Of a stretch of 44,261 nt of DNA, positions 6,531 through 43,684 are shown piece by piece. Under the pieces are notes generated by a model. That model was given only the letters and a program-made list of their open reading frames with translations. It ran no database searches and was not told where the DNA came from. A program made the translations under genes and the position numbers. Position 1 is the first letter of the stretch. The number at the start of each line of letters is the position of its first letter. Origin of the DNA: Escherichia phage vB_Ec-G9; the sequence record PQ433351.1; one strand, given 5' to 3'.

Positions 6531-6551
6531 TTTACTGGACACTATAGAAGG
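6531..6551 (+). promoter_or_regulatory. phage RNAP promoter
   Basis: TTTACTGGACACTATAGAAGG. Confidence 0.8.
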
Positions 6552-6616
6552 AAAGCCTAGGTAATCTAGGTTTATAAGGTAGTATGGGTAATTAAGTAAA
6601 TATAGGAGATATAAAT

Positions 6617-6994
6617 ATGTCAATGGTGACTACTCTGGTATTCGTAGCTCAATACTTTCGTGGTTTGGCTAACAAGTTCAAAGCTAAGGCTATCAAAGCT
6701 ATTGAGTCTCGCATTGAAGCAGTACAGGCAGAGCAGTTTGAAGTTGAAGAACATCGTAGTTCTCAAATGATTGACTGCCACAATCGCTACTATGCATCTC
6801 GTGATGACCTTAATGCACGTCAAGTCAAAGAGGTAGAAGAGATGATGGCACGTCACCAGCAAGAGCGAGACAATCTGAAGGCAGACTTTGAAGAGAACAA
6901 AGCATCCATTGCACTGGTACATCAAGCTGCATCTGACAGCCTGAAGAAAGAGATTGTTATGCTGGAGATTGAACTGGACAATCTGACCAAATAA
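6617..6994 (+). CDS. hypothetical coiled-coil protein (125 aa)
   Basis: RBS AGGAG upstream; charged heptad-like sequence. Confidence 0.6.
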   Translation: MSMVTTLVFVAQYFRGLANKFKAKAIKAIESRIEAVQAEQFEVEEHRSSQMIDCHNRYYASRDDLNARQVKEVEEMMARHQQERDNLKADFEENKASIALVHQAASDSLKKEIVMLEIELDNLTK

Positions 6995-7014
6995 TTACTG
7001 GACACTATAGAACA
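6994..7014 (+). promoter_or_regulatory. phage RNAP promoter
   Basis: ATTACTGGACACTATAGAACA. Confidence 0.75.
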
Positions 7015-7071
7015 ATAGGTCGGCTTAGTTCGGCCTATGATTGTGTAGTGTAACAATAGGAGACTAAATCA

Positions 7072-7875
7072 ATGGCACGTAATTTTGATTTTGGCGCAGA
7101 GGTCACTAAGTCAGAAGGTAAAGTATTTAAGAACCCAGAAGTGGGCGACCATGAAGCTGTAATCTCTGGAATCATTCATGTTGGTTCCTTCCAAGATATC
7201 TTTAAGAAAGGCAATACCACTGAAGTTAAGAAGCCAGCAAACTTTGTTCTTGTTAAGATTGTCCTGATGGGTGATGATGACAAGAACGAAGATGATTCAC
7301 GCATGGAACAGTGGATGGCTGTGCCTCTGAAGTCAGGTGATAAAGCTACTCTGACTAAGTTCCTGAATGCAGTTGATCCTAAAGAACTGCTGGGTGGCTT
7401 CGATGACTTCATCGGTGAATGCCTGACTGCAACTATGGTTGGCTCTGGCGACAAGAATGATGATGGTACTTTCAAGTATGTTAACTGGAAAGGCTTTGGC
7501 GGTATGCCTGATAAGTTGAAGAAGCTTGTACTGGCTCAGGTAGAAGAGGAAGGTCTGTCTATGACAGGTCATATCACCTTCGACAAGCTGACCAAAGAAA
7601 TCCTTGATGACATCCCAGCTAACTTGGTACGTCAATACTTCCTGAACGAGACACCTCGTGGTAAGAACCTGTCTGTTGCTGGCTCTCACGTAGAAGCTAT
7701 TATCAAAGCTGCTCGTGAAGAAGACCCAGAGTGGAAGAAAGCCAAGAAGAAAGATGACGAGGATGCTACTCCAGCTAATCGTAAGTCTCTGGATACTGGC
7801 GAGTCTGTTCCACAGGAAGTACCTGAAGCAGAAGATACTCCTGCACCGGAGATGGATGAGGACGCGGAATATTAA
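7072..7875 (+). CDS. abundant protein with acidic C-terminal tail; candidate ssDNA-binding protein (267 aa)
   Basis: RBS AGGAG; highly biased (expression-type) codon usage; C-terminus EMDEDAEY; position and tail resemble T7 gp2.5 logic; sequence similarity not established. Confidence 0.6.
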   Translation: MARNFDFGAEVTKSEGKVFKNPEVGDHEAVISGIIHVGSFQDIFKKGNTTEVKKPANFVLVKIVLMGDDDKNEDDSRMEQWMAVPLKSGDKATLTKFLNAVDPKELLGGFDDFIGECLTATMVGSGDKNDDGTFKYVNWKGFGGMPDKLKKLVLAQVEEEGLSMTGHITFDKLTKEILDDIPANLVRQYFLNETPRGKNLSVAGSHVEAIIKAAREEDPEWKKAKKKDDEDATPANRKSLDTGESVPQEVPEAEDTPAPEMDEDAEY

Positions 7876-7884
7876 GGAGAAAGG

Positions 7885-8103
7885 ATGAAAGTACAAATCG
7901 TAACCCTGCACTGCAAGAAAGGTATCACAACGCTCGGAGGTGGCACTTTCCACTCTTTCTCCGAAGGGGAGATTTATGCTGACCTGCACTACATCTGGCG
8001 CGACGGACAGCACGTGGTGAACTACAGCGACCCAGCTACGGGGAAACGCCACGGCGTATCGCTTCCGGCGCATGACATTGCTCAGGTGAACACAGTTTTA
8101 TAA
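7885..8103 (+). CDS. hypothetical protein (72 aa)
   Basis: RBS AAGGAG upstream. Confidence 0.55.
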   Translation: MKVQIVTLHCKKGITTLGGGTFHSFSEGEIYADLHYIWRDGQHVVNYSDPATGKRHGVSLPAHDIAQVNTVL

Positions 8104-8104
8104 A

Positions 8105-8120
8105 GTCTCACATGTGAGAC
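8105..8120. repeat. 16-bp perfect palindrome GTCTCACATGTGAGAC (copy 3)
   Basis: Exact; lies 15 bp upstream of promoter at 8136. Confidence 0.9.
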
Positions 8121-8135
8121 AAATCGGTGTCCGGT

Positions 8136-8159
8136 ATTTACTGGACACTATAGAAGAGA
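8136..8159 (+). promoter_or_regulatory. phage RNAP promoter
   Basis: TATTTACTGGACACTATAGAAGAG. Confidence 0.8.
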
Positions 8160-8207
8160 AGAATTTTAATCGGCGATAATGCCACAACTAACAAAGGAGA
8201 ATTTAAT

Positions 8208-8585
8208 ATGTTCAAGATTGAAACTATCGTAAACCGTGTTGTTAAAGGTGCTGCTCTGGTATCCGTTGAGTCTTTCATTATCGTCGATGAAGCTGATCAA
8301 CTGGTAGCTGGTACTAAGGCTTACGATACCCGTGAAGAAGCTCAGGCTAAGATTGACAGCATGGGTAACTTCGCTGCTGGTCTGGAGTTCGCTCGCGCTT
8401 GCTTCCCTGAGCAGGCTGACAAAGCTCAGATTGGTAAGGCTAATATCGTAGCTGAATATCTGGATTGGATTGCTGCTGGTAAGCCGGTGAAAGAAGTTAA
8501 GTCTGCTGAAGAAGCTGAAGCTCAGGCGGCAGAAGAAGTAGCTGCACCGGTAGATGCTCCGGTAAGCGAAGAAGAAGAGTTTTAA
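8208..8585 (+). CDS. highly expressed small protein with acidic C-terminal tail ending EEEEF (125 aa)
   Basis: Strong RBS AAAGGAGA; codon usage like capsid gene; followed directly by terminator; function unknown. Confidence 0.7.
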   Translation: MFKIETIVNRVVKGAALVSVESFIIVDEADQLVAGTKAYDTREEAQAKIDSMGNFAAGLEFARACFPEQADKAQIGKANIVAEYLDWIAAGKPVKEVKSAEEAEAQAAEEVAAPVDAPVSEEEEF

Positions 8586-8587
8586 TT

Positions 8588-8625
8588 GATGCCCTGTCTG
8601 CCTTAGTGTAGGCAGGGTCTTTTGC
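8588..8625 (+). terminator. intrinsic terminator (conserved twin of 18032)
   Basis: ATGCCCTGTCTGCC-TTAGTGTA-GGCAGGG followed by TCTTTTG; near-identical element after capsid gene. Confidence 0.65.
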
Positions 8626-8649
8626 GTAATAGTTATTGGAGAATGAATT

Positions 8650-9896: not shown

Positions 9897-10282
9897 AATC
9901 ATCTGAGGTAGCAGCTTATAAGAGGGAATTGCTAGAGAAGCAAGGATGGAAGTGCCCCCTATGTGGCGGCAGTCTCAAGGCTGTTACTCCTATAAACCGT
10001 GTACTTGACCATGACCATGAGACAGGATTCTGCCGTGCTGTTGTATGCCGAGGCTGCAATGGTGCAGAAGGAAAGATTAAGGGTGTTATCTCTGGTTACG
10101 GTAAGGCGGGTAACAACCGTTACTTCCAGCTTCAATGGTTAGAGCGACTATATGAATACTGGAAGTTACATAGTACGCCTCAGACAGATAAGTTATATCA
10201 CAAACATCAAACGGAGGCAGAGAAGCGCGAGGCTAAGAACCGTAAGGCACGCCTTGCTTATGCAAGAAAGAAAGGAGTATGA
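9881..10282 (+). CDS. endonuclease VII-type Holliday junction resolvase
   Basis: CPLCG...DHDHETG...CRGCN zinc/HxH motif pattern typical of T4 endo VII family. Confidence 0.75.
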   Translation: MVSKLKSSEVAAYKRELLEKQGWKCPLCGGSLKAVTPINRVLDHDHETGFCRAVVCRGCNGAEGKIKGVISGYGKAGNNRYFQLQWLERLYEYWKLHSTPQTDKLYHKHQTEAEKREAKNRKARLAYARKKGV

Positions 10283-10283
10283 T

Positions 10284-10715
10284 ATGGACTGTATAGACCA
10301 CGGGCATTATAAGTGCTTAAATCAATTAGGTTACTACAGGTCGTGGCATAAACCTAGTAAGAAGTTGCAATTACTTCATCGCGTGGTCTATGCAGAGCAC
10401 CACGGCCTTTCTATAGAGGATATAAAGGATGTAGTGATTAGACACACTTGTGATAATGCAAGATGTATAAACCCTGCACACTTAATATCTGGTACACAGC
10501 AGGACAACATTCAAGACATGATAGGTAGAGGCAGGCGTGCTAGCTTTGCAGGCGAAAAGAATAATCGCGCTAAACTGACTTGGGATGTTGTACGTGCTAT
10601 CAGGGCAACATATGTTGCTAATAAGAAAGGTGAGAGGTTACGACTAGCTAAGCTATATAATGTCTCACCTGCTACCATTAGTGATATTGTAAGCGGGAGG
10701 GTTTGGAAAGAATAA
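10284..10715 (+). CDS. HNH homing endonuclease
   Basis: LHRVVYAEHHG ... VIRHTCDNARCINPAHL (HNH_3-like) plus C-terminal DNA-binding tail; RBS AAAGGAG. Confidence 0.8.
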   Translation: MDCIDHGHYKCLNQLGYYRSWHKPSKKLQLLHRVVYAEHHGLSIEDIKDVVIRHTCDNARCINPAHLISGTQQDNIQDMIGRGRRASFAGEKNNRAKLTWDVVRAIRATYVANKKGERLRLAKLYNVSPATISDIVSGRVWKE

Positions 10716-11722
10716 TGGGTAAGATTAGAAACTTGTTTACTAATAAGGAGGTAGAAGAAGCAGTTGAAAGTGCAAAGCGCGATGATGGCACTATCAACTA
10801 TCGCCTGATGGCGTCTATTCTCTCAGATAACACACATGGGACTACAGTTACAAGGCAGCTTGCAAAGTATTGGGCCAAACAGTTTGAAAAGCGGAAGAAG
10901 AATGGCGAGGCGTATGAAACCTTGGCTATTGCGAACCGTGCTATCAAAGAAGAACGTAAGCTCAGGACTCCTGACCGCTACGAGGATTTGGCTATTGTAC
11001 CATTGCCTGACTCGCCTCATCGAAGTGTATTGGTAATACCTGACACCCATGCACCTTATGAGCATCCAGATACATTAGAGTTTCTGGCAGCGGTGGCAGC
11101 ACGTTACCGTCCAGACACTGTAATTCATCTTGGTGATGAGGCGGACAAGCACGCACTTTCATTCCATACGTCAGATCCTAATCTGGATTCTGCTGGTATG
11201 GAGTTAGAGAAGGCTCGTATCTTCATGCGTAAATTACATAAGATGTTCCCTGTAATGCGCATCTGCCACTCTAATCATGGCTCCTTACATTTCCGTAAGG
11301 CCAGTGCTCATGGCATCCCTGTGCAATACCTGCGCACCTACCGTGAAGTCTTCTTCCCGCAGGGAGGTGGCGACCAGTGGGATTGGCAGCATACGCACGT
11401 CCTTGAGTTGCCGAATGGTGAACAAGTGGCATTCAAGCATCAACCTGCTGGCTCTGTCCTAGCAGATGCAGCGCATGAGCGTATGAACCTTGTGTGTGGT
11501 CACTTGCACGGTAAGATGTCTGTGGAGTACGCACGTAATACACATGAACAGTATTGGGCTGTGCAAGGTGGCTGCTTAATTGATGAGTCATCCCGTGCAT
11601 TTGCCTATGGGCGTGAGTCTAAATACAAGCCAGCATTAGGTTGTGTGGTTATTCTGGAGGGTGTACCTCATATTGTCCCGATGCAAACCAATAGCGACAA
11701 CCGTTGGATTGGCAAGATTTAG
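10715..11722 (+). CDS. calcineurin-like metallophosphoesterase
   Basis: VIPDTHAPY ... HLGDEADKH ... CGHLHG: DxH / GDxxD / GHxH metallophosphatase motifs. Confidence 0.75.
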   Translation: MGKIRNLFTNKEVEEAVESAKRDDGTINYRLMASILSDNTHGTTVTRQLAKYWAKQFEKRKKNGEAYETLAIANRAIKEERKLRTPDRYEDLAIVPLPDSPHRSVLVIPDTHAPYEHPDTLEFLAAVAARYRPDTVIHLGDEADKHALSFHTSDPNLDSAGMELEKARIFMRKLHKMFPVMRICHSNHGSLHFRKASAHGIPVQYLRTYREVFFPQGGGDQWDWQHTHVLELPNGEQVAFKHQPAGSVLADAAHERMNLVCGHLHGKMSVEYARNTHEQYWAVQGGCLIDESSRAFAYGRESKYKPALGCVVILEGVPHIVPMQTNSDNRWIGKI

Positions 11723-11742
11723 TTGACACTATAGAACAAAGG
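11717..11742 (+). promoter_or_regulatory. phage RNAP promoter (variant -12 to -10 GTT)
   Basis: GATTTAGTTGACACTATAGAACAAAG. Confidence 0.7.
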
Positions 11743-11822
11743 GCTAGGTAAGACTTTATCGGCTGGTGTATCCAAATGATATTGCACTAGCCCTTGATTG
11801 TATAGTGAATGGAGGATTCAAT

Positions 11823-16748: not shown

Positions 16749-16772
16749 TATTTACTGGACACTATAGAAGGG
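16749..16772 (+). promoter_or_regulatory. phage RNAP promoter upstream of capsid gene
   Basis: TATTTACTGGACACTATAGAAGGG. Confidence 0.85.
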
Positions 16773-16820: not shown

Positions 16821-18026
16821 ATGTCTACACCGAATACTCTGACCAACGTTGCAGTCTCCGCTTCCGGTGAGGTAGACAGCCTGCTCATTGAGAAATTCAA
16901 TGGTAAGGTGAATGAGCAGTACCTGAAAGGTGAGAACATCATGAGCTACTTTGATGTTCAGACTGTAACTGGTACTAATACTGTAAGCAACAAATACTTG
17001 GGTGAAACCGAGTTGCAGGTTCTAGCACCGGGCCAGTCTCCGGCTGCAACCTCTACTCAGGCAGATAAAAACCAACTGGTAATTGACGCCACTGTTATTG
17101 CTCGTAACACTGTTGCTCACCTGCATGACGTACAGGGTGATATTGATAGCCTGAAGCCGAAGCTTGCTACTAACCAAGCGAAGCAGCTGAAGAAGATGGA
17201 AGATGAAATGCTGATTCAGCAGATGCTGCTGGGCGGTATTGCTAACACTCAGGCTAAGCGTACTAATCCGCGTGTTAAAGGCCATGGCTTCTCTGTCAAC
17301 GTAGAAGTTGCAGAAAGTGAAGCACTGGTCAACCCGCAGTATGTAATGGCGGCTGTAGAGTTTGCTCTGGAGCAGCAGCTTGAGCAGGAAGTAGACATCT
17401 CTGATGTAGCTATCCTGATGCCGTGGCGCTACTTCAACGTACTGCGTGATGCAGACCGTATCGTTGACAAGAGCTACACCATTAGCCAGTCTGGTGCAAC
17501 CATTCAGGGTTTTGTTCTGTCTTCTTACAACTGCCCTGTTATCCCGTCTAACCGCTTCCCTAAATTCTCTGAGGGTCAGAAACATCACCTGCTGTCAAAT
17601 GAAGACAACGGTTATCGTTATGACCCGACTGCAGAAATGAATGGCGCTATCGCGGTACTGTTCACAGCTGACGCTCTTCTTGTTGGTCGTTCAATTGATG
17701 TAACCGGTGATATCTTCTATGAGAAGAAAGAGAAGACCTATTACATTGACACCTTTATGTCTGAAGGTGCAATCCCTGACCGTTGGGAGGCAGTGTCTGT
17801 AGTTACCACCAAGCGAGAGACAAATGGCACGCCTACCACTACTGCAACTCAGGCCGCACAGCATACTCAGGTTCTGAACCGTGCACAGCGTAAAGCAGTG
17901 TATGTCAAGAATGCTGCTCAGGTTGCTGCCGCTGCTTCTAGCTTGTCTGCTGAAGACTTGGTTGCTGCTGTTCGTGCTGTAATGGCTAATGACATTAAGC
18001 CGACTGCAATGAAACCTGCTGAGTAA
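16821..18026 (+). CDS. major capsid protein
   Basis: Strong RBS AAGGAGG, expression-type codon usage, promoter upstream and terminator downstream, position. Confidence 0.9.
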   Translation: MSTPNTLTNVAVSASGEVDSLLIEKFNGKVNEQYLKGENIMSYFDVQTVTGTNTVSNKYLGETELQVLAPGQSPAATSTQADKNQLVIDATVIARNTVAHLHDVQGDIDSLKPKLATNQAKQLKKMEDEMLIQQMLLGGIANTQAKRTNPRVKGHGFSVNVEVAESEALVNPQYVMAAVEFALEQQLEQEVDISDVAILMPWRYFNVLRDADRIVDKSYTISQSGATIQGFVLSSYNCPVIPSNRFPKFSEGQKHHLLSNEDNGYRYDPTAEMNGAIAVLFTADALLVGRSIDVTGDIFYEKKEKTYYIDTFMSEGAIPDRWEAVSVVTTKRETNGTPTTTATQAAQHTQVLNRAQRKAVYVKNAAQVAAAASSLSAEDLVAAVRAVMANDIKPTAMKPAE

Positions 18027-18031: not shown

Positions 18032-18068
18032 ATGCCCTATCTACCTTGCGTAGGTAGGGTTCTTTTTG
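18032..18068 (+). terminator. intrinsic terminator after capsid gene
   Basis: ATGCCCTATCTACC-TTGCGTA-GGTAGGG followed by TTCTTTTTG. Confidence 0.7.
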
Positions 18069-29324: not shown

Positions 29325-29607
29325 ACATGCAGCTACAGAGGACGAGGTTGGCATTCTGCATGGTGCTATTACCAAAATCTTCAATAAGAAAGCACAGGCA
29401 ATACTGGACACTATAGAAGAAGACCCTGATGCAGCATTACATTTAGTGTCTGGTAAGGATATTGGTGCGATGTGTAAGTGGGTTCTTGATAACGGCATTA
29501 CCGCCACACCTGCTGCACAGCAGGAAGAGTCCAAGTTATCTAAGCGCCTCAAGGCTATCCGAGAGGCATCCAGTGGTAAGATAATTCAATTCACTAAGGA
29601 GGATTGA
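29308..29607 (+). CDS. terminase small subunit (positional call)
   Basis: GTG start with RBS GGAGGGAG; between holin and large terminase as in T7 gene 18. Confidence 0.55.
   Translation: MSVHNKHAATEDEVGILHGAITKIFNKKAQAILDTIEEDPDAALHLVSGKDIGAMCKWVLDNGITATPAAQQEESKLSKRLKAIREASSGKIIQFTKED
29401..29422 (+). promoter_or_regulatory. phage RNAP promoter embedded in small terminase coding region
   Basis: ATACTGGACACTATAGAAGAAG; encodes LDTIEE in frame. Confidence 0.6.
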
Positions 29608-31505
29608 TGGCTAAGGCAAGAGAATCACAAGCGGAGGCTCTTGCCAGATGGGAGATGCTACAGGAGTTACAGCAGACCTTTCCTTACACAGCGGAAGGTT
29701 TGCTTCTCTTTGCAGATACAGTTATCCATAACTTGATTGCAGGCAACCCTCATCTGATTCGTATGCAGGCTGATATCTTGAAGTTCCTATTCTACGGACA
29801 TAAGTATCGCCTCATCGAAGCGCCTCGTGGTATCGCTAAGACAACACTATCAGCAATCTATACGGTATTCCGTATTATCCATGAACCGCATAAGCGTATC
29901 ATGGTTGTATCCCAAAACGCCAAGCGAGCAGAGGAAATCGCAGGTTGGGTAGTTAAAATCTTCCGTGGCCTAGACTTTCTTGAGTTTATGCTACCAGACA
30001 TCTACGCAGGGGACCGTGCATCCGTTAAGGCGTTTGAGATTCATTACACCCTACGTGGTAGTGATAAGTCTCCTTCTGTATCCTGTTACTCAATCGAAGC
30101 AGGTATGCAGGGTGCTCGTGCTGATATTATTCTAGCGGATGACGTAGAGTCGATGCAGAATGCTCGTACGGCAGCGGGCCGTGCCTTGCTTGAGGAACTG
30201 ACTAAGGAGTTTGAATCTATCAACCAGTTTGGGGATATCATTTACCTTGGTACACCTCAGAACGTAAACTCTATCTACAACAACCTACCTGCTCGTGGTT
30301 ACTCTGTTCGTATCTGGACTGCGCGTTACCCTTCAGTAGAGCAAGAGCAATGTTATGGCGACTTCCTTGCACCTATGATTGTTCAAGATATGAAGGACAA
30401 CCCAGCACTTCGCTCAGGGTACGGGTTGGATGGTAATAGTGGTGCACCTTGTGCCCCTGAAATGTATGATGATGAAGTCCTGATTGAGAAGGAAATCTCT
30501 CAGGGTGCTGCTAAGTTCCAGCTTCAGTTCATGCTTAACACTCGCATGATGGATGCTGACAGATACCCATTACGCCTGAACAATCTAATCTTCACCTCGT
30601 TTGGTACAGAGGAAGTCCCTGTGATGCCTACGTGGAGTAATGATTCCATAAACATCATTGGTGATGCACCTAAGTATGGTAACAAGCCTACGGATTTCAT
30701 GTACAGACCTGTAGCTCGCCCATACGAATGGGGTGCTGTCTCCCGCAAGATTATGTATATTGACCCTGCGGGTGGTGGTAAGAACGGAGATGAGACGGGT
30801 GTAGCCATCGTATTCCTGCACGGCACATTCATTTATGTGTATCAGTGCTTTGGTGTACCTGGTGGATACCGAGAGTCGTCCCTGAATCGCATTGTGCAGG
30901 CCGCAAAGCAGGCGGGTGTTAAAGAGGTATTCATTGAGAAGAACTTTGGTCATGGCGCGTTTGAGGCGGTAATTAAGCCGTACTTTGAACGAGAGTGGCC
31001 TGTAACTCTGGAAGAGGATTACGCCACCGGACAGAAAGAGTTGCGTATCATTGAGACGCTGGAGCCGCTCATGGCAGCCCATAGGCTTATCTTCAATGCA
31101 GAGATGGTGAAGTCAGACTTCGAGTCGGTACAGCACTATCCGCTTGAACTACGCATGTCCTACAGTCTTTTCAATCAAATGTCGAACATAACGATTGAGA
31201 AGAACAGCCTCCGGCACGATGACCGCCTAGACGCCCTGTATGGCGCTATACGGCAATTAACTTCTCAGATAGACTATGACGAGGTTACACGGATTAATCG
31301 CCTCAGAGCGCAGGAGATGCGCGATTACATCCATGCTATGAACACACCTCATCTACGCAGGGCAATGCTATATGGAGATTACGGTACTGAGCGAAGAGTG
31401 ACCAACACTTCCGTAGCGATGCAGCAGCGAGTTTACGGGCAGAACTACCGAAATAAATCGGCAAGCAGAAATACACTTTCTGCAAGGATTTCAAGGACTT
31501 ATTAA
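29607..31505 (+). CDS. terminase large subunit
   Basis: ATPase motif region GHKYRLIEAPRGIAKTT; size about 630 aa; position. Confidence 0.9.
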   Translation: MAKARESQAEALARWEMLQELQQTFPYTAEGLLLFADTVIHNLIAGNPHLIRMQADILKFLFYGHKYRLIEAPRGIAKTTLSAIYTVFRIIHEPHKRIMVVSQNAKRAEEIAGWVVKIFRGLDFLEFMLPDIYAGDRASVKAFEIHYTLRGSDKSPSVSCYSIEAGMQGARADIILADDVESMQNARTAAGRALLEELTKEFESINQFGDIIYLGTPQNVNSIYNNLPARGYSVRIWTARYPSVEQEQCYGDFLAPMIVQDMKDNPALRSGYGLDGNSGAPCAPEMYDDEVLIEKEISQGAAKFQLQFMLNTRMMDADRYPLRLNNLIFTSFGTEEVPVMPTWSNDSINIIGDAPKYGNKPTDFMYRPVARPYEWGAVSRKIMYIDPAGGGKNGDETGVAIVFLHGTFIYVYQCFGVPGGYRESSLNRIVQAAKQAGVKEVFIEKNFGHGAFEAVIKPYFEREWPVTLEEDYATGQKELRIIETLEPLMAAHRLIFNAEMVKSDFESVQHYPLELRMSYSLFNQMSNITIEKNSLRHDDRLDALYGAIRQLTSQIDYDEVTRINRLRAQEMRDYIHAMNTPHLRRAMLYGDYGTERRVTNTSVAMQQRVYGQNYRNKSASRNTLSARISRTY

Positions 31506-31526
31506 TTACTGGACACTATAGAAGGA
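31503..31526 (+). promoter_or_regulatory. phage RNAP promoter
   Basis: TAATTACTGGACACTATAGAAGGAAGG. Confidence 0.8.
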
Positions 31527-33167: not shown

Positions 33168-33192
33168 GATTTACTGGACACTATAGAAGAGG
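33168..33192 (+). promoter_or_regulatory. phage RNAP promoter upstream of tailspike genes
   Basis: GATTTACTGGACACTATAGAAGAGG. Confidence 0.8.
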
Positions 33193-33270
33193 TAAGATAG
33201 CGCCGTTCTTTTGAGCGGCCTATTACTAGCCAATCTTCATAGGGAGGGTTGGAAAGTAATAGGAGATAGC

Positions 33271-35169
33271 ATGGCTAAATTAACCAAACCTAATACTGAA
33301 GGAATCTTGCATAAAGGACAATCGTTGTATGAGTACCTTGATGCGAGAGTTTTAACATCAAAGCCGTTTGGTGCTGCAGGTGACGCCACTACTGATGATA
33401 CGGAGGTTATAGTTGCTTCATTAAACTCTCAGAAAGCTGTCACAGTCTCAGATGGTGTATTCTCTAGCTCTGGTATTAATAGTAATTACTGTAACTTAGA
33501 CGGTAGGGGTAGTGGCGTGCTAAGTCACCGTTCCAGTACAGGTAACTACTTAGTATTTAACAATCTACGTGCAGGTCGCTTAAGTAATATTACGGTAGAA
33601 AGTAATAAGGCGACTGATACAACTCAGGGACAGCAGGTATCTCTTGCTGGTGGAAGTGATGTTACTGTAAGTGACGTTAACTTCTCAAACGTTAAAGGTA
33701 CTGGTTTCAGTTTAATCGCATACCCTAATGATGCGCCACCTGATGGACTTATGATTAAAGGCATTCGAGGTAGCTATTCCGGCTATGCTACTAATAAGGC
33801 AGCCGGGTGTGTACTTGCTGACTCCTCAGTTAACTCCCTCATAGATAACGTCATTGCTAAGAACTACCCTCAGTTCGGAGCAGTAGAGCTGAAAGGTACA
33901 GCCAGTTATAACATAGTCAGCAATGTTATAGGGGCAGACTGCCAGCATGTAACTTACAACGGTACAGTAGGGTCAATAGCTCCCTCTAACAACCTTATCA
34001 ATGGGGTAGTGGCTAATAATCCTAAATATGCAGCGGTTGTTGCAGGCAAAGGTAGTACCAACTTAATCTCAGATGTGCTTGTAGATTTCTCAATCTCTGA
34101 TGCTAGTCAGGCTCACGGTGTTACAGTAGAAGGCTCTGATAACGTAATAAGCAATGTGCTTATGTCAGGATGTGATGGTACTAACTCTTCAGGACAAGCT
34201 CAAACTGCTACAATTGCGCGCTTTATAGGTACAGCTAATAACAACTATGCGTCTGTATTTCCTAGCTACAGTGCTACAGGTGTTATTACTTTCGAATCAG
34301 GTTCTACCCGTAACTTCGTAGAGGTAAAGCATCCGGGAAGGAGAAACGACCTTCTCAGTACTGCTAGTGCTATTGACGGTGCAGCTACTATTGACGGCAC
34401 TAGTAATAGTAACGTAGTGCACGCACCTGCCTTAGGGCAGTACATAGGTAGTATGTCAGGTAGGTTCGAATGGCGGATTAAGTCCATGTCACTCCCTTCA
34501 GGCGTTCTTACTTCTGCTGATAAGTACAGAATGCTTGGGGATGGTGCTGTGTCATTAGCTTTAGGTGGTGGCACTTCTTCTCAAGTTCGCCTATTTACTT
34601 CTGATGGTACTTCTCGGACAGTGTCCCTCACCAACGGTAACGTGCGTCTTTCTACCAGTAGCACAGGCTTTTTGCAGTTAGGTGCTGATGCAATGACCCC
34701 AGATAGTACTGGTACATACGCATTAGGTTCCGCCAGTCGAGCATGGTCTGGCGGTTTTACTCAAGCAGCATTCACTGTTACCTCAGATGCTCGGTGTAAA
34801 ACAGAACCTCTTACTATCTCAGATGCCTTACTGGATGCTTGGTCTGAAGTTGACTTTGTGCAGTTTCAGTATTTGGATCGTGTTGAGGAGAAGGGTGCAG
34901 ACTCAGCTAGATGGCACTTTGGCATCATAGCTCAGCGAGCTAAGGAGGCTTTCGAACGACACGGTATAGATGCACATCGCTATGGCTTCTTGTGCTTCGA
35001 CAGTTGGGATGATGTATACGAGGAAGATGCCAATGGCTCTCGTAAACTGATTACACCAGCAGGTTCCCGCTACGGTATTCGTTACGAGGAAGTACTGATA
35101 TTAGAGGCTGCGTTGATGCGGCGGACTATTAAGCGTATGCAGGAGGCACTAGCTTCCCTGCCTAAGTAA
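33271..35169 (+). CDS. tailspike 1 with beta-helix body and C-terminal intramolecular chaperone (peptidase S74-like) domain
   Basis: RBS AGGAG before ATG 33271; repetitive Ser/Thr/Asn/Gly-rich beta-helix-like body; C-terminal ~110 aa block (DARCKTEP...WHFGIIAQRAKEAF...GIRYEEVLILEAA) resembles the auto-cleaving chaperone domain of endosialidase/K5-lyase tailspikes, from memory. Confidence 0.7.
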   Translation: MAKLTKPNTEGILHKGQSLYEYLDARVLTSKPFGAAGDATTDDTEVIVASLNSQKAVTVSDGVFSSSGINSNYCNLDGRGSGVLSHRSSTGNYLVFNNLRAGRLSNITVESNKATDTTQGQQVSLAGGSDVTVSDVNFSNVKGTGFSLIAYPNDAPPDGLMIKGIRGSYSGYATNKAAGCVLADSSVNSLIDNVIAKNYPQFGAVELKGTASYNIVSNVIGADCQHVTYNGTVGSIAPSNNLINGVVANNPKYAAVVAGKGSTNLISDVLVDFSISDASQAHGVTVEGSDNVISNVLMSGCDGTNSSGQAQTATIARFIGTANNNYASVFPSYSATGVITFESGSTRNFVEVKHPGRRNDLLSTASAIDGAATIDGTSNSNVVHAPALGQYIGSMSGRFEWRIKSMSLPSGVLTSADKYRMLGDGAVSLALGGGTSSQVRLFTSDGTSRTVSLTNGNVRLSTSSTGFLQLGADAMTPDSTGTYALGSASRAWSGGFTQAAFTVTSDARCKTEPLTISDALLDAWSEVDFVQFQYLDRVEEKGADSARWHFGIIAQRAKEAFERHGIDAHRYGFLCFDSWDDVYEEDANGSRKLITPAGSRYGIRYEEVLILEAALMRRTIKRMQEALASLPK

Positions 35170-35254: not shown

Positions 35255-36967
35255 ATGCTTCAAAGATTAAGTGCTTACTTGGTGAAGTACAAGAGTAAAC
35301 TAACAGGTACTATTGAGCGCCTGCTATCTGATAAACTATCGGATACAATAGATGTTGCGGATTTTGGAGTTAATCCATCCTCTAATGACAACAGGCAAGC
35401 CCTTCAAGCTGCATTCAATGCGGTCAGACTGCTAGGCGGTGGTACTGTAGCAGTCACTAAAGCTGGCGAATATAAACTCAGTGGTACTGTTGAGATATTT
35501 GCTAATACACACTTCAAGGTTGCTAAAGGTGTAACATTTGTACGTGACTACGAAACAGGAGATACTCTATTCAGATTATCACAAGGGCAAGCTAGTAATG
35601 TAACAGTCAGTGGAGGTATCTATGAAGGCAATGGTCACACTAAGGGAGATACACCTTTTGTAGTATTTGCATCTACTAGTAATAATGATTTGAAGTTTGA
35701 AGGCATAACAGTTAACAATGTAGTGGACTACCACGCCATAGATTTAGCAGATTGGAACAACGTAGTTATTCGTGATTGTAAATTCCTAGGGTTTAAGAAT
35801 ACAGGCAGTCGTAACTTCTCAGAGGCTATACAGTTAGACCCAGGACTTATTACAGTAGGTCGCTATGTGCAGTCTAGTGGTTTACTGGTAGAGAATTGCT
35901 ATGCTGGCCCAAACCTTGATTCTGGATTTGGCGGGTATGGTGCTCTAGTAGGGAATCATGCATCAGCTTATGGTGTTCAAGATAACAACATTAGAATCCT
36001 AAATTGCACTACAGATGGTGCGCTCTTTGCAGGTGTACGTGTATTTAACTGGAAAAACTGGACAGTACGTGGTTGCACCTTTAGAAACTCTAATGCAAGA
36101 GGTGTTCATGTTACACCTGTCTCCTCTCAAACTAAACCGCAAGGAACTCGACAAGGTAGTGTTGTAGATTGTACTTTTGATGGCGTAAGAACACCAGTGC
36201 TAATTGCTGCACCATCTTGGCCTTTTACCGATATTAGTGACATTTGGCATGACCATATTGAAATTTCTAATAATATTATGATCCTCACAGAGGATGTATC
36301 CTATGGTGTAGATGCAAGGTGGTGTAAGAATTTAATTGTAAAAGGTAATACAGGCTCTGGTGGCTTAGGGTTAATCGGTTTACGCTTTGGGACAAAGTAC
36401 CACATCGAAGGTAATACTTGGGAAAACGGAAGAGGTAGTGGGATTTGGTTAAGTGAGTCTGATGCTACTACATTCATTGGTACTGGTTTATCAGGAGAAG
36501 GTATACTTAGTCGTAATATCTTCTCTAAATTAGGGCAACATGGTATTCATGTAAACTGCAAGGTTGGCGGTCTAGTGATTAAGGCTAATAATATGAAGGA
36601 AGTATCTACAGCTGAAGCAGGTAGGCACTTCATTAGCATAGACACAGGAGCTAACAACATCCTAGTAGAGGGTAATATTGGAGTAGATGGAGAAAGCCCT
36701 AACAAGCCAAGCCTTGGTATTAGTGTTACTTCTTCTTGCTCCAATATTAAACTAATTGGCAATGATTGCTATGGTACGCAAGCACCTCAGGATAACCAAG
36801 GAGTCGGTTCTAGTACGGTGATTGTTTATGGACTAAATGGCAATCCTACAACTTTAGGCGTAGGTGCACCTGTAGGCTCTTTAGCAACTAATATCAATGG
36901 GTCTGGTGGTAGTGCATTGTACGTTAAAAAATCTGGTACTTCTGCTAAAGGCTGGGTTGCAAAGTAG
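35255..36967 (+). CDS. tailspike 2, right-handed beta-helix (pectate-lyase-like depolymerase fold)
   Basis: Strong RBS AAAGGAGG; repeated NxxV / GNxG beta-helix-like motifs; no chaperone domain. Confidence 0.75.
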   Translation: MLQRLSAYLVKYKSKLTGTIERLLSDKLSDTIDVADFGVNPSSNDNRQALQAAFNAVRLLGGGTVAVTKAGEYKLSGTVEIFANTHFKVAKGVTFVRDYETGDTLFRLSQGQASNVTVSGGIYEGNGHTKGDTPFVVFASTSNNDLKFEGITVNNVVDYHAIDLADWNNVVIRDCKFLGFKNTGSRNFSEAIQLDPGLITVGRYVQSSGLLVENCYAGPNLDSGFGGYGALVGNHASAYGVQDNNIRILNCTTDGALFAGVRVFNWKNWTVRGCTFRNSNARGVHVTPVSSQTKPQGTRQGSVVDCTFDGVRTPVLIAAPSWPFTDISDIWHDHIEISNNIMILTEDVSYGVDARWCKNLIVKGNTGSGGLGLIGLRFGTKYHIEGNTWENGRGSGIWLSESDATTFIGTGLSGEGILSRNIFSKLGQHGIHVNCKVGGLVIKANNMKEVSTAEAGRHFISIDTGANNILVEGNIGVDGESPNKPSLGISVTSSCSNIKLIGNDCYGTQAPQDNQGVGSSTVIVYGLNGNPTTLGVGAPVGSLATNINGSGGSALYVKKSGTSAKGWVAK

Positions 36968-36978
36968 TAGGAGGTTGA

Positions 36979-37128
36979 ATGCCATTAATCAAATCAGTCA
37001 AGCAAAGTGCTGTACGCCAGAACACAGAAGAGCTTATTCAATCAGGACGTGACCATAAGCAAGCTTATGCGATTGCCAAGGATGTACAACGTCGTGCTAT
37101 GAAGAAACCTTCTGCATCTTCTGCGTAA
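36979..37128 (+). CDS. hypothetical small basic protein (49 aa)
   Basis: Strong RBS AGGAGG; below ORF-track cutoff. Confidence 0.4.
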   Translation: MPLIKSVKQSAVRQNTEELIQSGRDHKQAYAIAKDVQRRAMKKPSASSA

Positions 37129-37154
37129 GCAGGTTAATATCTTAGGAGGTAATT

Positions 37155-37616
37155 ATGGAAGTTTGGAGGCCTATTGCTGGTATACCAGATTACATGGTTT
37201 CCTCCTTTGGTCGTGTTAGATCTCATAAAAGAGGTAAGGTTACTATACTAAACCCTCCGCACGACAAAGGAGGTTATCGTAATGTTGTGCTACGTGTTAA
37301 TGGTGAAAAGATAAATCGCAAGGTACATAGGCTTGTGGCAGAGGCTTTCTTACCTAACCCTCACGGTTTACCTCAAGTAAATCACAAGGATGAAGTAAGA
37401 GACAATAATCATGTAAGTAATCTGGAGTGGTGTGATTGTGCATACAACGTAGATTACTCTCAAGCAGCTACTTATACTGTGATGTGCCCTAAAGGTAATA
37501 TCTTAGTAGTAAGGAATGTGGCTAAGTTTTGTAGGGAAAACGGATTAAGCAGTGGTTCTTTTACAGATATGCTTAAGGGAAGACGTAAGCAACATAAGGG
37601 TTATCGCTTAGTGTAA
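37155..37616 (+). CDS. HNH homing endonuclease (NUMOD4 + HNH)
   Basis: WRPIAGIPDYMVSSFGRV (NUMOD4-like) and VNHKDEVRDNNHVSNLEW (HNH). Confidence 0.8.
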   Translation: MEVWRPIAGIPDYMVSSFGRVRSHKRGKVTILNPPHDKGGYRNVVLRVNGEKINRKVHRLVAEAFLPNPHGLPQVNHKDEVRDNNHVSNLEWCDCAYNVDYSQAATYTVMCPKGNILVVRNVAKFCRENGLSSGSFTDMLKGRRKQHKGYRLV

Positions 37617-37669
37617 TACTTAGTGAGAGGGCTATACATGCCAAGTGGAAAATTTGATATGTATATGCG

Positions 37670-37980
37670 TCAAGTGTCTCGCCCTCGCCCTCGCCGGGTT
37701 GTCCCCATAGGGTGGCCTGAGGGAATCCGTCGAAGACGGGCAGGGCTGATGTCCTCCTTGGCTAGTACAAGGGAAGACCGAGGGAACGCCTAGGACGGCC
37801 TAGGGAATGGTTTAGTGGCGGACAAGGTGATTGCCTTAGTGAAGCCTCTTAGTACATTCCTGAGGCCATTCAGGGCGTTTATGAGGCATTGACAGGGTGG
37901 GCGTGGGTGGGCTATCTGTTCGTTTCGTTCACTCCGCTTGCGCTACGTTCACTCGCTCACGTGTACCTTAGGTTGTTCCT
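37670..37980. other. GC-rich non-coding segment; candidate terminal-repeat / genome-end region
   Basis: No ORF of 60 aa or more on either strand in 37617-38418; composition unlike flanking genes; short direct repeat CGTTCACTC twice. Confidence 0.3.
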
Positions 37981-38872: not shown

Positions 38873-38901
38873 TTGACAGCCACGGCATACAAGGTTACAT
38901 T
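38873..38901 (+). promoter_or_regulatory. host sigma70-type early promoter candidate
   Basis: TTGACA - 17 bp - TACATT. Confidence 0.5.
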
Positions 38902-39146: not shown

Positions 39147-39158
39147 GCTCTTTAACAA
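39147..39158 (+). promoter_or_regulatory. boxA-like antitermination element (copy 3)
   Basis: TTGCTCTTTAACAATTTG, 18/18 identical to copy 1. Confidence 0.6.
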
Positions 39159-39253
39159 TTTGGAAGGTAGCTTCTTAGTCGGGATAGGTTAGACCTAGGG
39201 CATTCTTTGAGTGCCCTATAATGTAACCTAACTAACTAATGAGGATTAATAAC

Positions 39254-39610: not shown

Positions 39611-39612
39611 AG

Positions 39613-39726
39613 ATGGAAAAGCAATATAACTTTATCTTTTCTGATGGTGTAACCTTGAAATGCTCCTTACGATTCGCCCAGATTCGCGAGGAAGTGCTAG
39701 GTACTACATATAAACTATTTATCTGA
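39613..39726 (+). CDS. early hypothetical small protein (37 aa)
   Basis: ATG 3 nt after ocr stop; below ORF-track cutoff. Confidence 0.3.
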   Translation: MEKQYNFIFSDGVTLKCSLRFAQIREEVLGTTYKLFI

Positions 39727-39740
39727 CACTATAAGAGAGG
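39716..39740 (+). promoter_or_regulatory. phage-promoter-like variant (ACTATAAGAG)
   Basis: TATTTATCTGACACTATAAGAGAGG: upstream half matches, +1 region differs. Confidence 0.35.
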
Positions 39741-39805
39741 ATTTAACAGGGCGTTACTTGTTAGCGCCCGATTAAGTTTATCTCAATAAACCAAATAGGT
39801 GACTT

Positions 39806-40690: not shown

Positions 40691-40753
40691 CCTTATCGGT
40701 GGCATCTTCTTAGGTGTCACCTATTAAGGTTTCTTTCACTAGGAGTAAACAAG

Positions 40754-43381
40754 ATGCAAGACTTACACGCTATTCAACTTCAACTTGAAGAAGAAATGTT
40801 TAACGGCGGTATCCGTCGCTTTGAAGCGGACCAACAGCGCCAGATTGCATCCGGTAATGAATCAGACACGGCATGGAATCGCCGCTTATTGTCCGAGTTA
40901 ATTGCGCCAATGGCTGAAGGTATTCAGGCATACAAGGAAGAGTATGAAGGTAAAAGAGGCCGTGCACCGCGTGCATTAGCTTTCATTAACTGCGTAGAAA
41001 ATGAAGTGGCAGCGTATATCACGATGAAAATCGTTATGGATATGCTGAACACGGATGTAACCTTGCAGGCTATAGCCATGAATGTAGCTGACCGCATTGA
41101 GGACCAAGTACGTTTTAGCAAGCTGGAAGGTCACGCCGCCAAATACTTTGAGAAAGTTAAGAAGTCACTTAAGGCAAGTAAGACTAAATCATATCGCCAT
41201 GCGCACAACGTAGCGGTCGTGGCTGAGAAGTCAGTAGCTGACCGTGACGCTGATTTCTCTCGCTGGGAGGCGTGGCCTAAAGATACCTTGCTACAAATCG
41301 GTATGACCTTGCTAGAAATACTGGAAAATAGTGTATTCTTCAATGGTCAGCCTGTCTTTCTTCGCACCTTGCGCACTAATGGTGGCAAGCATGGCGTTTA
41401 CTACTTACAGACTAGCGAACACGTAGGTGAATGGATAACTGCATTTAAAGAGCACGTAGCTCAGCTGAGTCCAGCCTATGCACCTTGCGTTATTCCTCCG
41501 CGTCCGTGGGTTTCTCCGTTTAATGGTGGCTTTCACACCGAGAAGGTGGCGAGTCGTATTCGTCTGGTTAAAGGAAACCGCGAGCACGTCCGCAAGCTGA
41601 CCAAAAAGCAAATGCCAGCGGTTTACAAGGCTGTTAACGCTTTGCAGGCGACTAAGTGGCAGGTTAATAAAGAGGTTTTGCAGGTAGTAGAGGACGTTAT
41701 CCGTCTCGACCTTGGTTATGGTGTGCCTTCCTTTAAACCACTCATCGACCGTGAGAACAAGCCAGCTAATCCAGTGCCGTTAGAGTTCCAGCACCTGCGA
41801 GGCCGTGAACTTAAAGAGATGCTAACGCCAGAACAGTGGCAAGCTTTTATAAACTGGAAAGGAGAATGTACCAAGCTGTATACCGCTGAAACTAAGCGCG
41901 GAAGCAAGTCGGCGGCGACCGTTCGCATGGTAGGACAAGCGCGCAAGTACAGCCAGTTCGACGCGATTTATTTCGTGTATGCACTGGATAGCCGTTCACG
42001 CGTTTATGCGCAATCTAGCACGCTCTCTCCGCAATCAAACGACTTAGGCAAGGCATTGCTCCGTTTTACCGAAGGGCAGCGTCTTGATAGCGCTGAGGCG
42101 CTTAAGTGGTTTTTGGTGAACGGGGCGAATAACTGGGGTTGGGATAAGAAAACTTTTGACGTGCGCACCGCTAACGTGCTGGATAGCGAATTTCAAGACA
42201 TGTGCCGCGACATTGCAGCCGACCCGCTGACCTTCACTCAATGGGTAAATGCTGATTCCCCTTACGGCTTCCTTGCATGGTGCTTTGAATATGCGCGTTA
42301 TCTGGATGCACTGGATGAAGGCACGCAAGACCAATTCATGACGCACCTACCCGTCCATCAAGACGGTAGTTGCTCTGGTATCCAGCACTATAGCGCGATG
42401 TTACGCGATGAAGTAGGTGCGAAAGCAGTAAACCTTAAGCCTTCTGACTCCCCTCAAGATATTTATGGCGCGGTTGCGCAGGTTGTTATCCAGAAGAATT
42501 ACGCCTACATGAATGCAGATGATGCAGAGACTTTCACATCTGGAAGCGTCACACTTACAGGTGCAGAACTGCGTAGCATGGCTAGTGCGTGGGATATGAT
42601 AGGAATCACTCGCGGCCTGACCAAAAAGCCCGTAATGACACTACCTTATGGCAGCACACGTCTAACCTGCCGTGAATCAGTGATTGATTATATCGTTGAT
42701 TTGGAAGAAAAAGAGGCCCAACGAGCTATTGCCGAAGGGCGGACGGCGAATCCCGTGCACCCTTTTGATAATGACCGCAAAGACTACCTTACACCTGGTG
42801 CAGCCTACAACTATATGACGGCTTTAATTTGGCCTTCTATCTCTGAGGTTGTTAAAGCTCCTATAGTGGCGATGAAGATGATTCGCCAGCTTGCACGTTT
42901 CGCAGCTAAAAGGAATGAAGGGTTAGAATACACCTTGCCAACTGGCTTCATCTTGCAACAAAAGATAATGGCTACCGATATGCTCCGTGTATCCACTTGC
43001 TTGATGGGTGAAATCAAGATGAGTCTACAGATTGAAACTGATGTAGTGGATGAAACGGCAATGATGGGCGCTGCCGCTCCTAACTTTGTTCACGGGCACG
43101 ATGCTAGTCACCTTATATTAACGGTATGTGACCTTGTTGATAAAGGGATTACATCTATCGCAGTAATTCATGATTCTTTTGGCACTCATGCAGGCCGTAC
43201 AGCCGATCTACGCAACAGCTTAAGGGCAGAAATGGTGAAGATGTATCAAGGCCGTAATGCACTGCAAAGCCTGCTAGATGAGCACGAAGAACGCTGGTTA
43301 GTTGATACAGGAATCCAAGTACCAGAGCAAGGAGAGTTTGACCTTAACGAAATCTTAGTATCTGACTATTGCTTCGCATAA
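40754..43381 (+). CDS. single-subunit DNA-dependent RNA polymerase (T7/SP6 type)
   Basis: [39 protein letters not shown] and C-terminal SDYCFA match T7 RNAP catalytic and C-terminal motifs; 875 aa. Confidence 0.95.
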
Positions 43382-43389
43382 TATTAATA

Positions 43390-43420
43390 GGCCATTCCTT
43401 CGGGAGTGGCCTTTCTTTTA
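43390..43420 (+). terminator. strong intrinsic terminator with UUCG tetraloop after RNAP gene
   Basis: GGCCATTCC-TTCG-GGAGTGGCC (9-bp stem, one G.U) followed by TTTCTTTT. Confidence 0.8.
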
Positions 43421-43454
43421 CCTACTACCTGTAACATTTCATTAACATAAACGT

Positions 43455-43470
43455 GTCTAACATGTGAGAC
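43455..43470. repeat. palindrome variant GTCTAACATGTGAGAC (copy 6)
   Basis: Mirror-image variant of copy 5; abuts promoter at 43471. Confidence 0.75.
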
Positions 43471-43495
43471 TTATTTACCGGACACTATAGGATAG
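43471..43495 (+). promoter_or_regulatory. phage RNAP promoter
   Basis: TTATTTACCGGACACTATAGGATAG. Confidence 0.7.
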
Positions 43496-43499
43496 CCGT

Positions 43500-43630
43500 C
43501 GGAGACGGGAAAGAAAGGGAAGATAAAAGGATATAAAAGGAAGTAATAGGTATTAAAGGTTATATATAGGTTTACCTAGGAATACCTATTACCTTCTTCC
43601 TTCCTCTTATTACTACTTAGAGGAAGGGCA
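43500..43630. other. AT-rich imperfect long inverted repeat; candidate replication origin or structured leader
   Basis: Purine-rich arm GGGAAAGAAAGGGAAGATAAAAGGA and pyrimidine-rich arm CCTTCTTCCTTCCTCTT around TATATAGGTTTACCTAGG; sits between two tandem phage promoters just downstream of the RNAP gene. Confidence 0.4.
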
Positions 43631-43640
43631 GATCTAGGTT

Positions 43641-43656
43641 GTCTCACATGTGAGAC
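43641..43656. repeat. 16-bp perfect palindrome GTCTCACATGTGAGAC (copy 7)
   Basis: Exact; 4 bp upstream of promoter at 43661. Confidence 0.9.
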
Positions 43657-43660
43657 TTCG

Positions 43661-43684
43661 TATTTACCGGACAGTATAGATAAG
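43661..43684 (+). promoter_or_regulatory. phage RNAP promoter (variant -5 G)
   Basis: TATTTACCGGACAGTATAGATAAG. Confidence 0.6.

Follow-up and report, generated by a model that had tools for sequence, protein, structure and literature searches.

The stretch of DNA analysed here (44,261 nt, hereafter the window) is a circularly permuted Vectrevirus genome of the K1-5/K1E type. At the DNA level it was 92-95% identical to Vectrevirus phages, and its gene order was collinear with that of K1-5. It carries a gene for a single-subunit RNA polymerase (RNAP) and a repeated 21-base motif. The motif ATTTACYGGACACTATAGAAG was searched for with up to 3 mismatches, using shuffled sequence as the control. 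It was found 12 times, always on the plus strand, compared to 0.00 matches in the shuffled sequence; five sites had no mismatch, one had 1, two had 2 and four had 3. A position-weight scan added a 13th, weaker site at 39717 (score of 18.1, compared to 26-36 for the others), and the same scan of the minus strand of the window gave no site of comparable score. The sites, which other than 39717 are the 12 matches of the motif search, are listed below with the associated features.

1936 to 1956, plus strand: promoter ATTTACCGGACACTATAGAAG, within the 3'-terminal part of the primase/helicase gene; identical to K1E 9342
2784 to 2804, plus strand: promoter variant ATTTTGCCGACACTATAGAAG, with GCC at -12 to -10; identical to K1-5 9010
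6530 to 6550, plus strand: consensus promoter ATTTACTGGACACTATAGAAG, 70 nt before the ORF at 6617-6994
6993 to 7013, plus strand: promoter AATTACTGGACACTATAGAAC, from the motif search
8136 to 8156, plus strand: consensus promoter, 55 nt before the ORF at 8208-8585
11717 to 11737, plus strand: GTT promoter ATTTAGTTGACACTATAGAAC, overlapping the end of the ORF at 10703-11722 and 32 nt before the ORF at 11766
16750 to 16770, plus strand: consensus promoter, 54 nt upstream of the gene for the major capsid protein (16821-18026); identical to K1E 24431
18034 to 18060, plus strand: terminator-like hairpin, 11-bp stem followed by TCTTTTTGTT, 8 nt past the major capsid gene
29399 to 29419, plus strand: promoter CAATACTGGACACTATAGAAG, within the small-terminase ORF; identical to K1-5 35488
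31504 to 31524, plus strand: promoter AATTACTGGACACTATAGAAG, at the end of the large-terminase gene; identical to K1-5 37593
33169 to 33189, plus strand: consensus promoter, 25 nt upstream of the first of the tailspike genes (33211-35169); identical to K1-5 39265
39717 to 39737, plus strand: weak promoter-like site ATTTATCTGACACTATAAGAG, with A at +1; part of the early region, 72 nt upstream of the gene-6 orthologue
40754 to 43381, plus strand: single-subunit RNAP gene (875 aa), orthologue of K1-5 gp7 and K1E gp7
42956 to 43063, plus strand: specificity-loop segment of the RNAP, residues 735-770, located by translation and alignments
42992 to 42994, plus strand: codon TCC for Ser747, the equivalent of T7 Asn748; Arg746 in SP6
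43389 to 43412, plus strand: terminator-like hairpin, 10-bp stem followed by TTCTTTT, 8 nt past the RNAP stop codon
43473 to 43493, plus strand: promoter ATTTACCGGACACTATAGGAT, the first after the RNAP gene and the terminator-like hairpin; identical to K1-5 6020
43662 to 43682, plus strand: promoter ATTTACCGGACAGTATAGATA; identical to K1-5 6204

Sigma-70-like sites were also present in the early region and, together with the hairpins, gave a pattern like that of T7/SP6-type genomes.

All 13 sites were on the coding strand; they either preceded an ORF by 25-76 nt or lay where a gene ends. With the G of TATAG numbered as +1, the consensus ATTTAC(T/C)GGACACTATAGAAG, which has a pyrimidine at -11, was matched exactly in five sites, and T or C occupied -11 in 13 of 13. 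The triplet at -12 to -10 was CTG in seven sites, CCG in three, and GCC, GTT and TCT in one each; the SP6 consensus has GGT. The sites had the general features of T7-supergroup single-subunit RNAP promoters, namely a conserved element of about 20 bp, a core ending in TATA-G at the start, multiple copies on one strand and a T7-like RNAP encoded in the same genome. The weak site at 39717 had orthologues in K1-5 (2014), K1E (2779), ACG-C91 (2526) and SP6 (2104). The repeated motif was confirmed to be the promoter set already described for coliphages of the K1-5/K1E type (genus Vectrevirus), and the 13 sites are very probably the middle and late promoters of such a phage, used by its own RNAP. Start sites and strengths in the window are predicted from the motif. 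The initial annotation had reported eleven strong sites and a GTT site, a number that fits the 12 matches. Its sites were real, but their coordinates were displaced by 1-2 nt; the first site of its span, 6531-43684, starts at 6530, and the sites at 1936 and 2784 fall outside that span.

The RNAP contained the Pfam domains RNA_pol (7.7e-90) and RPOL_N (1.5e-31), and was 99.2% identical to its K1-5 counterpart, 98.5% to that of K1E, 85.9% to that of SP6 and about 35% to that of T7. Its best match in the PDB was T7 RNAP (E = 2.8e-112, HMMER). Alignments of the loop made with MAFFT and with HMMER against the PDB chains of T7 RNAP agreed, and placed R745, S747, K755 and S757 of the window RNAP opposite T7 R746, N748, R756 and Q758. 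These four T7 residues contact bases, and N748 is coupled by covariation to -11 and -10, according to PMC11880802; the same two positions are where the window promoters depart from SP6. Residues 735-770 were identical in the window, K1-5 and K1E RNAPs. At the four contact positions, the window RNAP had R/S/K/S and SP6 R/R/K/S; the Arg that strictly marks SP6 at the T7-748 equivalent (R746) was therefore Ser747 in the window. This was the sole non-conservative difference from SP6 in the loop, the conservative ones being D742E, E753D, I760V and V764I, and in total 124 substitutions separated the two RNAPs. The claim that the RNAP is related to that of SP6 but has a distinct specificity loop was thus borne out, by 85.9% identity and by Ser747 in place of Arg746. 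The alignment with SP6, K1-5 and T7 that had been proposed as a check showed that the loop residues were not identical to those of SP6, since Ser747 replaced Arg746; identity was the outcome that had been named as counting against distinct specificity.

Comparison of the promoters across phages located the difference more narrowly. In five Vectrevirus genomes the base at -11 was a pyrimidine in 66 of 66 sites (C27/T39/G0) and in SP6 and Kpp-61 it was G in 27 of 27, these 66 and 27 sites being orthologous copies in related genomes and not independent observations. G at -11 (GGT or GGG at -12 to -10), the strict mark of SP6 (Zindervirus), was found in none of the 13 window sites. The earlier placement of the departure from an SP6-like consensus at -12 to -10 held, but only -11 was fully discriminating; when the genomes were pooled, -12 and -10 overlapped between the Vectrevirus and SP6/Kpp-61 groups, and the -9/-8 pair was GA in both. 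At the level of these aligned sequences, the base at -11 was shown to co-vary with the residue at the T7 Asn748 equivalent (Ser747 here, Arg746 in SP6). Era103 provided an independent pairing of Ser at this position with C at -11. A universal code, by which Arg pairs with G and Ser with a pyrimidine, was rejected; it is broken by MidiMira (Arg with A at -11) and by FBKp16 (Arg with T). Furthermore, two relatives with a Ser-type RNAP each had one site with G at -11. One, LL11, carried AATTACGGGAC...; the other, L018, is a Vectrevirus-like metagenomic contig from IMG/VR with a perfect SP6 consensus before a foreign tailspike module. Specificity may therefore be overlapping and not exclusive.

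The GTT site at 11717 departed from the SP6 consensus at 2 bases and from its own consensus at 3. Its description as intermediate was fair at the sequence level, but its T at -11 is of the Vectrevirus type, as in the group of other T/C sites, and it was conserved base for base in K1-5 (17755), K1E (19097), ACG-C91 (18325) and CrRp3; the SP6 orthologue, at 17428, is ATTTAAGTGACACTATAGAAC. It would be a conserved member of the set, with SP6-like bases at -12 and -10 and the lineage-specific T at -11.

By analogy with T7/SP6 biology, host RNA polymerase would transcribe the early region, including the phage RNAP gene (40754-43381), and the phage RNAP would then start transcripts at 12-13 coding-strand sites, on the G of ...CACTATA-G... 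in each. The reading that this RNAP is related to that of SP6 but prefers other promoters was supported by the comparisons above. Arg746 would read G at -11, whereas Ser747 would have lost this contact and would accept or prefer a pyrimidine; the lineage would have switched its polymerase and all of its promoters together. We suggest, tentatively and with doubts that outweigh our confidence, that one Arg-to-Ser change at the T7-Asn748 equivalent may suffice to shift SP6-group polymerases from the use of G to that of a pyrimidine at -11.

It is highly improbable that the repeats are a non-promoter element, such as recombination or packaging signals. The similarity of L018 to K1-5 and to the window stops just past its promoter at 2709, which shows that module boundaries can coincide with promoters; however, the -9 to +1 core of the repeats is identical to that of the experimentally established SP6 promoter, every one of them is on the coding strand, ahead of genes, a cognate RNAP is encoded in the genome, and K1E promoter/RNAP pairs work in reporter assays. 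Strand bias, gene context and sequence identity with known promoters led us to reject chance or non-promoter repeats. Alternatively, the promoters may be functionally the same, the difference at -12 to -10 having little effect, the RNAPs cross-recognising each other's sites and the split in consensus being lineage drift. Such drift would fit the overlap at -12 and -10, the GA pair common to both groups, the perfect SP6 promoter of L018 beside a Ser-type RNAP and the single G at -11 in LL11. We consider it distinctly unlikely, as -11 has switched at all 13 orthologous sites (0/66 G compared to 27/27 G), a change unlikely without selection, and as a charge has been lost in parallel at the residue through which T7 contacts -11/-10. 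Transcription from promoters further upstream could read through the exceptional ones and bypass them, so that their presence is no proof of use.

The specificities may also be distinct but have their determinant elsewhere than Ser747/Arg746, for example at E753/D752 in the loop or in residues outside it. On this premise, the promoter would be read by other residues because SP6-group polymerases would dock the loop differently from T7. Depending on the genus, Arg is accompanied by G, A or T at -11; the two RNAPs differ by 124 substitutions in total, and K1E and SP6 deviate from T7-derived rules (PMC11880802). Set against this are the S/R change, the sole non-conservative one in the loop within the closest pair (86% identity), and the fact that Vectrevirus and Era103, as separate lineages, both combine Ser with a pyrimidine at -11. 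A determinant outside this residue has some plausibility but is, on balance, unlikely.

If the single-residue proposal is true, the SP6 and K1-5/K1E RNAPs would form a natural, nearly orthogonal pair one contact apart, and mosaics like L018 would show promoter incompatibility limiting, or failing to limit, the exchange of modules between genera. The components of this idea are known, and it follows directly from work on T7/T3. The window itself is a Vectrevirus of the ordinary kind, its transcription system being the standard K1-5/K1E one, and the finding is of little new importance. The reasoning of the initial annotation, made from the letters alone, was sound in that a promoter change at -12 to -10 implied a changed specificity loop; its reading of the promoter/RNAP pair is correct, but in substance already published. 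The K1-5 and K1E genomes were reportedly described by Scholl et al. (2004, J Mol Biol 335:1151) and Stummeyer et al. (2006, Mol Microbiol 60:1123). A full-text literature search for the exact promoter strings gave no match, and in the phage-genome papers that mentioned promoters, BPROM or PHIRE had been applied and no K1-5 consensus was stated. What is added here is modest: -11 as the sole fully discriminating position, the reduction of the polymerase difference to Ser747 versus Arg746, and covariation across about ten Molineuxvirinae lineages. These findings could help in designing orthogonal polymerase/promoter pairs of the SP6 family; in a 2025 study in this area, rules derived from T7 were reported not to hold for the K1E and SP6 clusters (PMC11880802).

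Compared with known systems, the window most resembles K1-5 and K1E, with which it shares the consensus ATTTACTGGACACTATAGAAG, the order and gene context of the promoters and the number of sites. Even the variant sites (GCC, GTT, CAATA... and CAGTATAGATA) were identical base for base, and in K1-5, K1E, ACG-C91 and CrRp3 the promoters corresponded site by site at the same positions, mostly with identical sequences. The differences from K1-5 were single bases at a few sites, such as GGACAC at window 1936 and GGATAC at K1-5 8320, a K1-5 site at 2323 with no counterpart in the window, and TCT in place of GCT in the weak early site. The resemblance to SP6 (ATTTAGGTGACACTATAGAAG; Zindervirus) extended to ATTTA at -17 to -13, GACACTATAG at -9 to +1 and AAG at +2 to +4, to a genome plan in which nearly all promoters are positionally orthologous, and to the residues aligned with T7 746, 756 and 758 (R, K and S). 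In contrast, -12 is mostly G in SP6 and mostly C in Vectrevirus, and -10 is mostly T and mostly G, respectively. The -9/-8 pair is said to distinguish SP6 from T7 promoters (Lee & Kang 1993).

T7 and T3 offer a parallel, namely a pair of close polymerases that diverge at this same loop residue, with promoters that diverge at -11/-10; discrimination between these promoters by Asn748/Asp749 was reportedly established by Raskin et al. in 1992-93, the T7 structure being 1CEZ. The residues and bases differ, however, being N/D with G/C in T7/T3 and R/S with G/Y in SP6/Vectrevirus, and a causal role demonstrated for T7/T3 is proposed by analogy for Ser747/Arg746. In reporter systems, expression has been obtained from K1E and K1-5 promoters with the RNAP of the same phage (PMC6412113, PMC10908868 and PMC12400119); PMC6412113 pairs the capsid-gene promoter of each phage with its own RNAP, and K1E 24431 immediately precedes the major capsid gene of K1E. 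In the 2025 NAR study, no active pair was obtained when the three key residues of the K1E and SP6 clusters were grafted onto T7 RNAP, so the rule for these clusters was left unexplained there (PMC11880802). That study grouped T7-like RNAPs by the residues at T7 748/756/758 and placed K1E and SP6 in separate clusters; the window RNAP has S/K/S at these positions, as does K1E, whereas SP6 has R/K/S.

Twelve matches to ATTTACYGGACACTATAGAAG were found in the window at up to three mismatches, compared to 0.00 expected from dinucleotide-preserving shuffles. A position-weight scan added a weaker thirteenth site at 39717 (ATTTATCTGACACTATAAGAG), and detected no site on the minus strand of the window comparable to the plus-strand set. 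The sites were located in intergenic gaps or overlapped the final codons of the preceding ORF; with +1 set as the G of TATAG, the predicted start was mostly 25-76 nt ahead of the next ORF (≥100 aa).

Sites found by the search at up to three mismatches
1936, 2784, 6530, 6993, 8136, 11717, 16750, 29399, 31504, 33169, 43473, 43662; all plus strand

The initial annotation described an SP6-like motif that differed at -12 to -10, and this description was correct: the 13 sites carried CTG (seven), CCG (three), or GCC, GTT and TCT (one each), compared to GGT in the SP6 consensus. The sites that it reported were real, but their positions were off by 1-2 nt, and 1936 and 2784 lay outside its span. The weak promoter-like site at 39717 (TATAAGAG), which precedes the RNA polymerase (RNAP) gene within the early region, has A rather than G at +1 and is conserved in K1-5, K1E, ACG-C91, CrRp3 and SP6. 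A terminator-like hairpin (39749-39769) lies 12 nt past it, immediately ahead of the gene-6 orthologue.

Base counts at three promoter positions in 66 sites from five Vectrevirus genomes and 27 sites from SP6 and Klebsiella phage Kpp-61; as orthologues from related genomes, the sites are not independent samples
-12: Vectrevirus C 51, G 14, T 1; SP6 and Kpp-61 G 19, A 3, C 3, T 2
-11: Vectrevirus C 27, T 39, G 0; SP6 and Kpp-61 G 27
-10: Vectrevirus G 48, T 12, C 5, A 1; SP6 and Kpp-61 T 21, G 5, A 1

Although the region as a whole differed, only -11 was diagnostic. Counted by locus, which is the measure that matters, 13 of 13 were switched. In one orthologous pair (SP6 2104, TGT; window 39717, TCT) -11 alone was changed. 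The GTT site at 11717, previously regarded as intermediate, is the orthologue of SP6 17428 (AGT); it retains the SP6-like base at both -12 and -10, whereas its T at -11 is lineage-specific.

The ORF at 40754-43381 (plus strand) encodes an 875-aa T7-type single-subunit RNAP (Pfam RNA_pol, RPOL_N) with 99.2% identity to K1-5 gp7, 98.5% to K1E gp7, 85.9% to SP6 RNAP and ~35% to T7 RNAP. Loop residues were matched by MAFFT alignments, which agreed with an independent HMMER alignment to PDB T7 RNAP chains.

Specificity-loop residues in the window, K1-5, K1E, ACG-C91 and CrRp3, then in SP6 and Kpp-61
T7 R746: R745; R744
T7 N748: S747; R746
T7 R756: K755; K754
T7 Q758: S757; S756

A changed specificity loop had been predicted, and one non-conservative substitution was present, S747 in place of SP6 R746 at the T7 N748 equivalent; the other loop differences from SP6 (D742E, E753D, I760V and V764I) were all conservative. 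A 2025 study (PMC11880802) lists R746, N748, R756 and Q758 as making base-specific hydrogen bonds in the T7 structure, and couples position 748 to promoter -11 and -10 by covariation analysis. The sole non-conservative substitution thus falls at the very residue predicted to read the altered positions. The AT-rich recognition loop differed from that of SP6 only by R68K, which fits the ATTTA at -17 to -13 common to the window and SP6. These in silico results support an RNAP with a specificity related to, but distinct from, that of SP6.

Each related genus compared had its own loop and promoter pair.

Residues at T7 746/748/756/758 and consensus promoter
phD2B: R/R/K/A; AATTAGGGGCTACTATAGAAG
MidiMira: R/R/R/S; AATTAGAGACCACTATAGAAG
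PP1: V/K/E/S; AATTAGGGCGGACTATAGAAC
FBKp16: R/R/N/Y; TAATAGTGGCGAGTATAGAAC
Era103: R/S/R/S; ATTAACCACCCAGTATAGAAG

Vectrevirus and Era103, two separate lineages, both combine Ser at the 748 equivalent with a pyrimidine at -11. The -11 base found with Arg varies between genera (G, A or T), so there is no simple one-residue code in the Molineuxvirinae; MidiMira (L007) and the FBKp16-like loci L009, L030, L031 and L035 have Arg, yet all of their promoters carry A or T at -11. Since G at -11 is paired with Arg or Lys in most of these relatives, the state seen in Vectrevirus appears to be derived. L023 (IMGVR_UViG_3300045988_000861) shows what may be a further specificity switch within the SP6 group: its SP6-like RNAP (84% identity to that of the window) has GDVFMS instead of the GDIKMS of the others, so that Phe occupies the position equivalent to T7 Arg756, and the eight promoters of L023 (ATTTGTGTTGCACTATAGAAG) read TTGC rather than TGAC at -10 to -7.

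Two Ser-type relatives each had one promoter with G at -11. In L018 (IMGVR_UViG_3300029310_000051), a metagenomic Vectrevirus-like contig, the site at 2709-2729 matches the SP6 consensus perfectly (ATTTAGGTGACACTATAGAAG). Just past this promoter, the contig ceases to resemble K1-5 and the window, and a tailspike module starts that was dissimilar to all six SP6-group genomes compared; the arrangement resembles an exchange of modules at the promoter. In phage LL11, site 13788 (AATTACGGGAC; AATTACGGGACACTATAGAAC) belongs to a set that is otherwise of Vectrevirus type, and its orthologue in the window, site 6993, has CTG. Either the Ser-type enzyme tolerates G at -11 or the genes concerned are expressed by read-through, and L018 represents a natural test of cross-recognition. 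PMC11880802 places K1E and SP6 in separate specificity clusters, defined by T7 748/756/758, and notes that both depart from the rules that it established for the remaining T7-like RNAPs.

The phage adds a further isolate to Vectrevirus: the window has 92-95% DNA identity to VEc3, LL11, AAPEc6, K1-5, K1E and others, and is collinear with K1-5. It is a circular permutation of a K1-5-type genome (K1-5 position 1 corresponds to 37679); the natural gene order thus starts near 37.7 kb, with the RNAP gene at 40754 in the early region. Inspection of the 37643-37914 region and the window ends revealed a single copy of the direct terminal repeat (~234 bp), indicating that it was collapsed in assembly.

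Tailspike genes were also compared. The block 13671-35308 aligns to K1-5 at 94.5%, covering the K5 lyase gene gp46 of that phage, and includes the first tailspike gene of the window (33211-35169; Peptidase_S74 C-terminal domain). The second (35255-36967) encodes 570 aa with Beta_helix/NosD domains, and its region (35308-37643) had no DNA similarity to K1-5, where the K1 endosialidase occupies that position; host capsule specificity probably differs from that of K1-5. Segments 43705-44261, 6256-6528 and 10277-10942 also had no counterpart in K1-5. The first contains an ORF (43707-44123, 138 aa) between the RNAP and primase/helicase genes that is probably a homing-endonuclease insertion, since the corresponding VEc3 region is annotated as an HNH endonuclease.

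Terminator-like hairpins and sigma-70-like promoters
43389-43412: strong terminator-like hairpin, 8 nt past the RNAP stop codon
18034-18060: strong terminator-like hairpin, 8 nt past the major capsid stop codon
38289-38317 and 38873-38901: sigma-70-like promoters (TTGACA, 17-nt spacer) near the genome's left end

T7/SP6-type genomes typically have these elements in such an arrangement. K1-5 (AY370674), K1E (NC_007637), ACG-C91 and CrRp3 each had 13-14 matching sites, in the same order and with the same downstream genes as in the window. Even the atypical members (ATTTTGCCGAC, CAATACTGGAC and GGACAGTATAGATA) and the site at 11717 (ATTTAGTTGACACTATAGAAC) were identical base for base in these relatives. 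The promoters are reportedly listed by Scholl et al. in 2004 and Stummeyer et al. in 2006. Window site 16750, which precedes the major capsid gene, has the same sequence as K1E 24431; PMC6412113 describes reporters driven, phage by phage, by the capsid-gene promoter and the phage's own RNAP, K1E and K1-5 included. The "K1E promoter" is in routine use in later papers. The sites in the window are the published, and already known, K1-5/K1E promoter and polymerase system.
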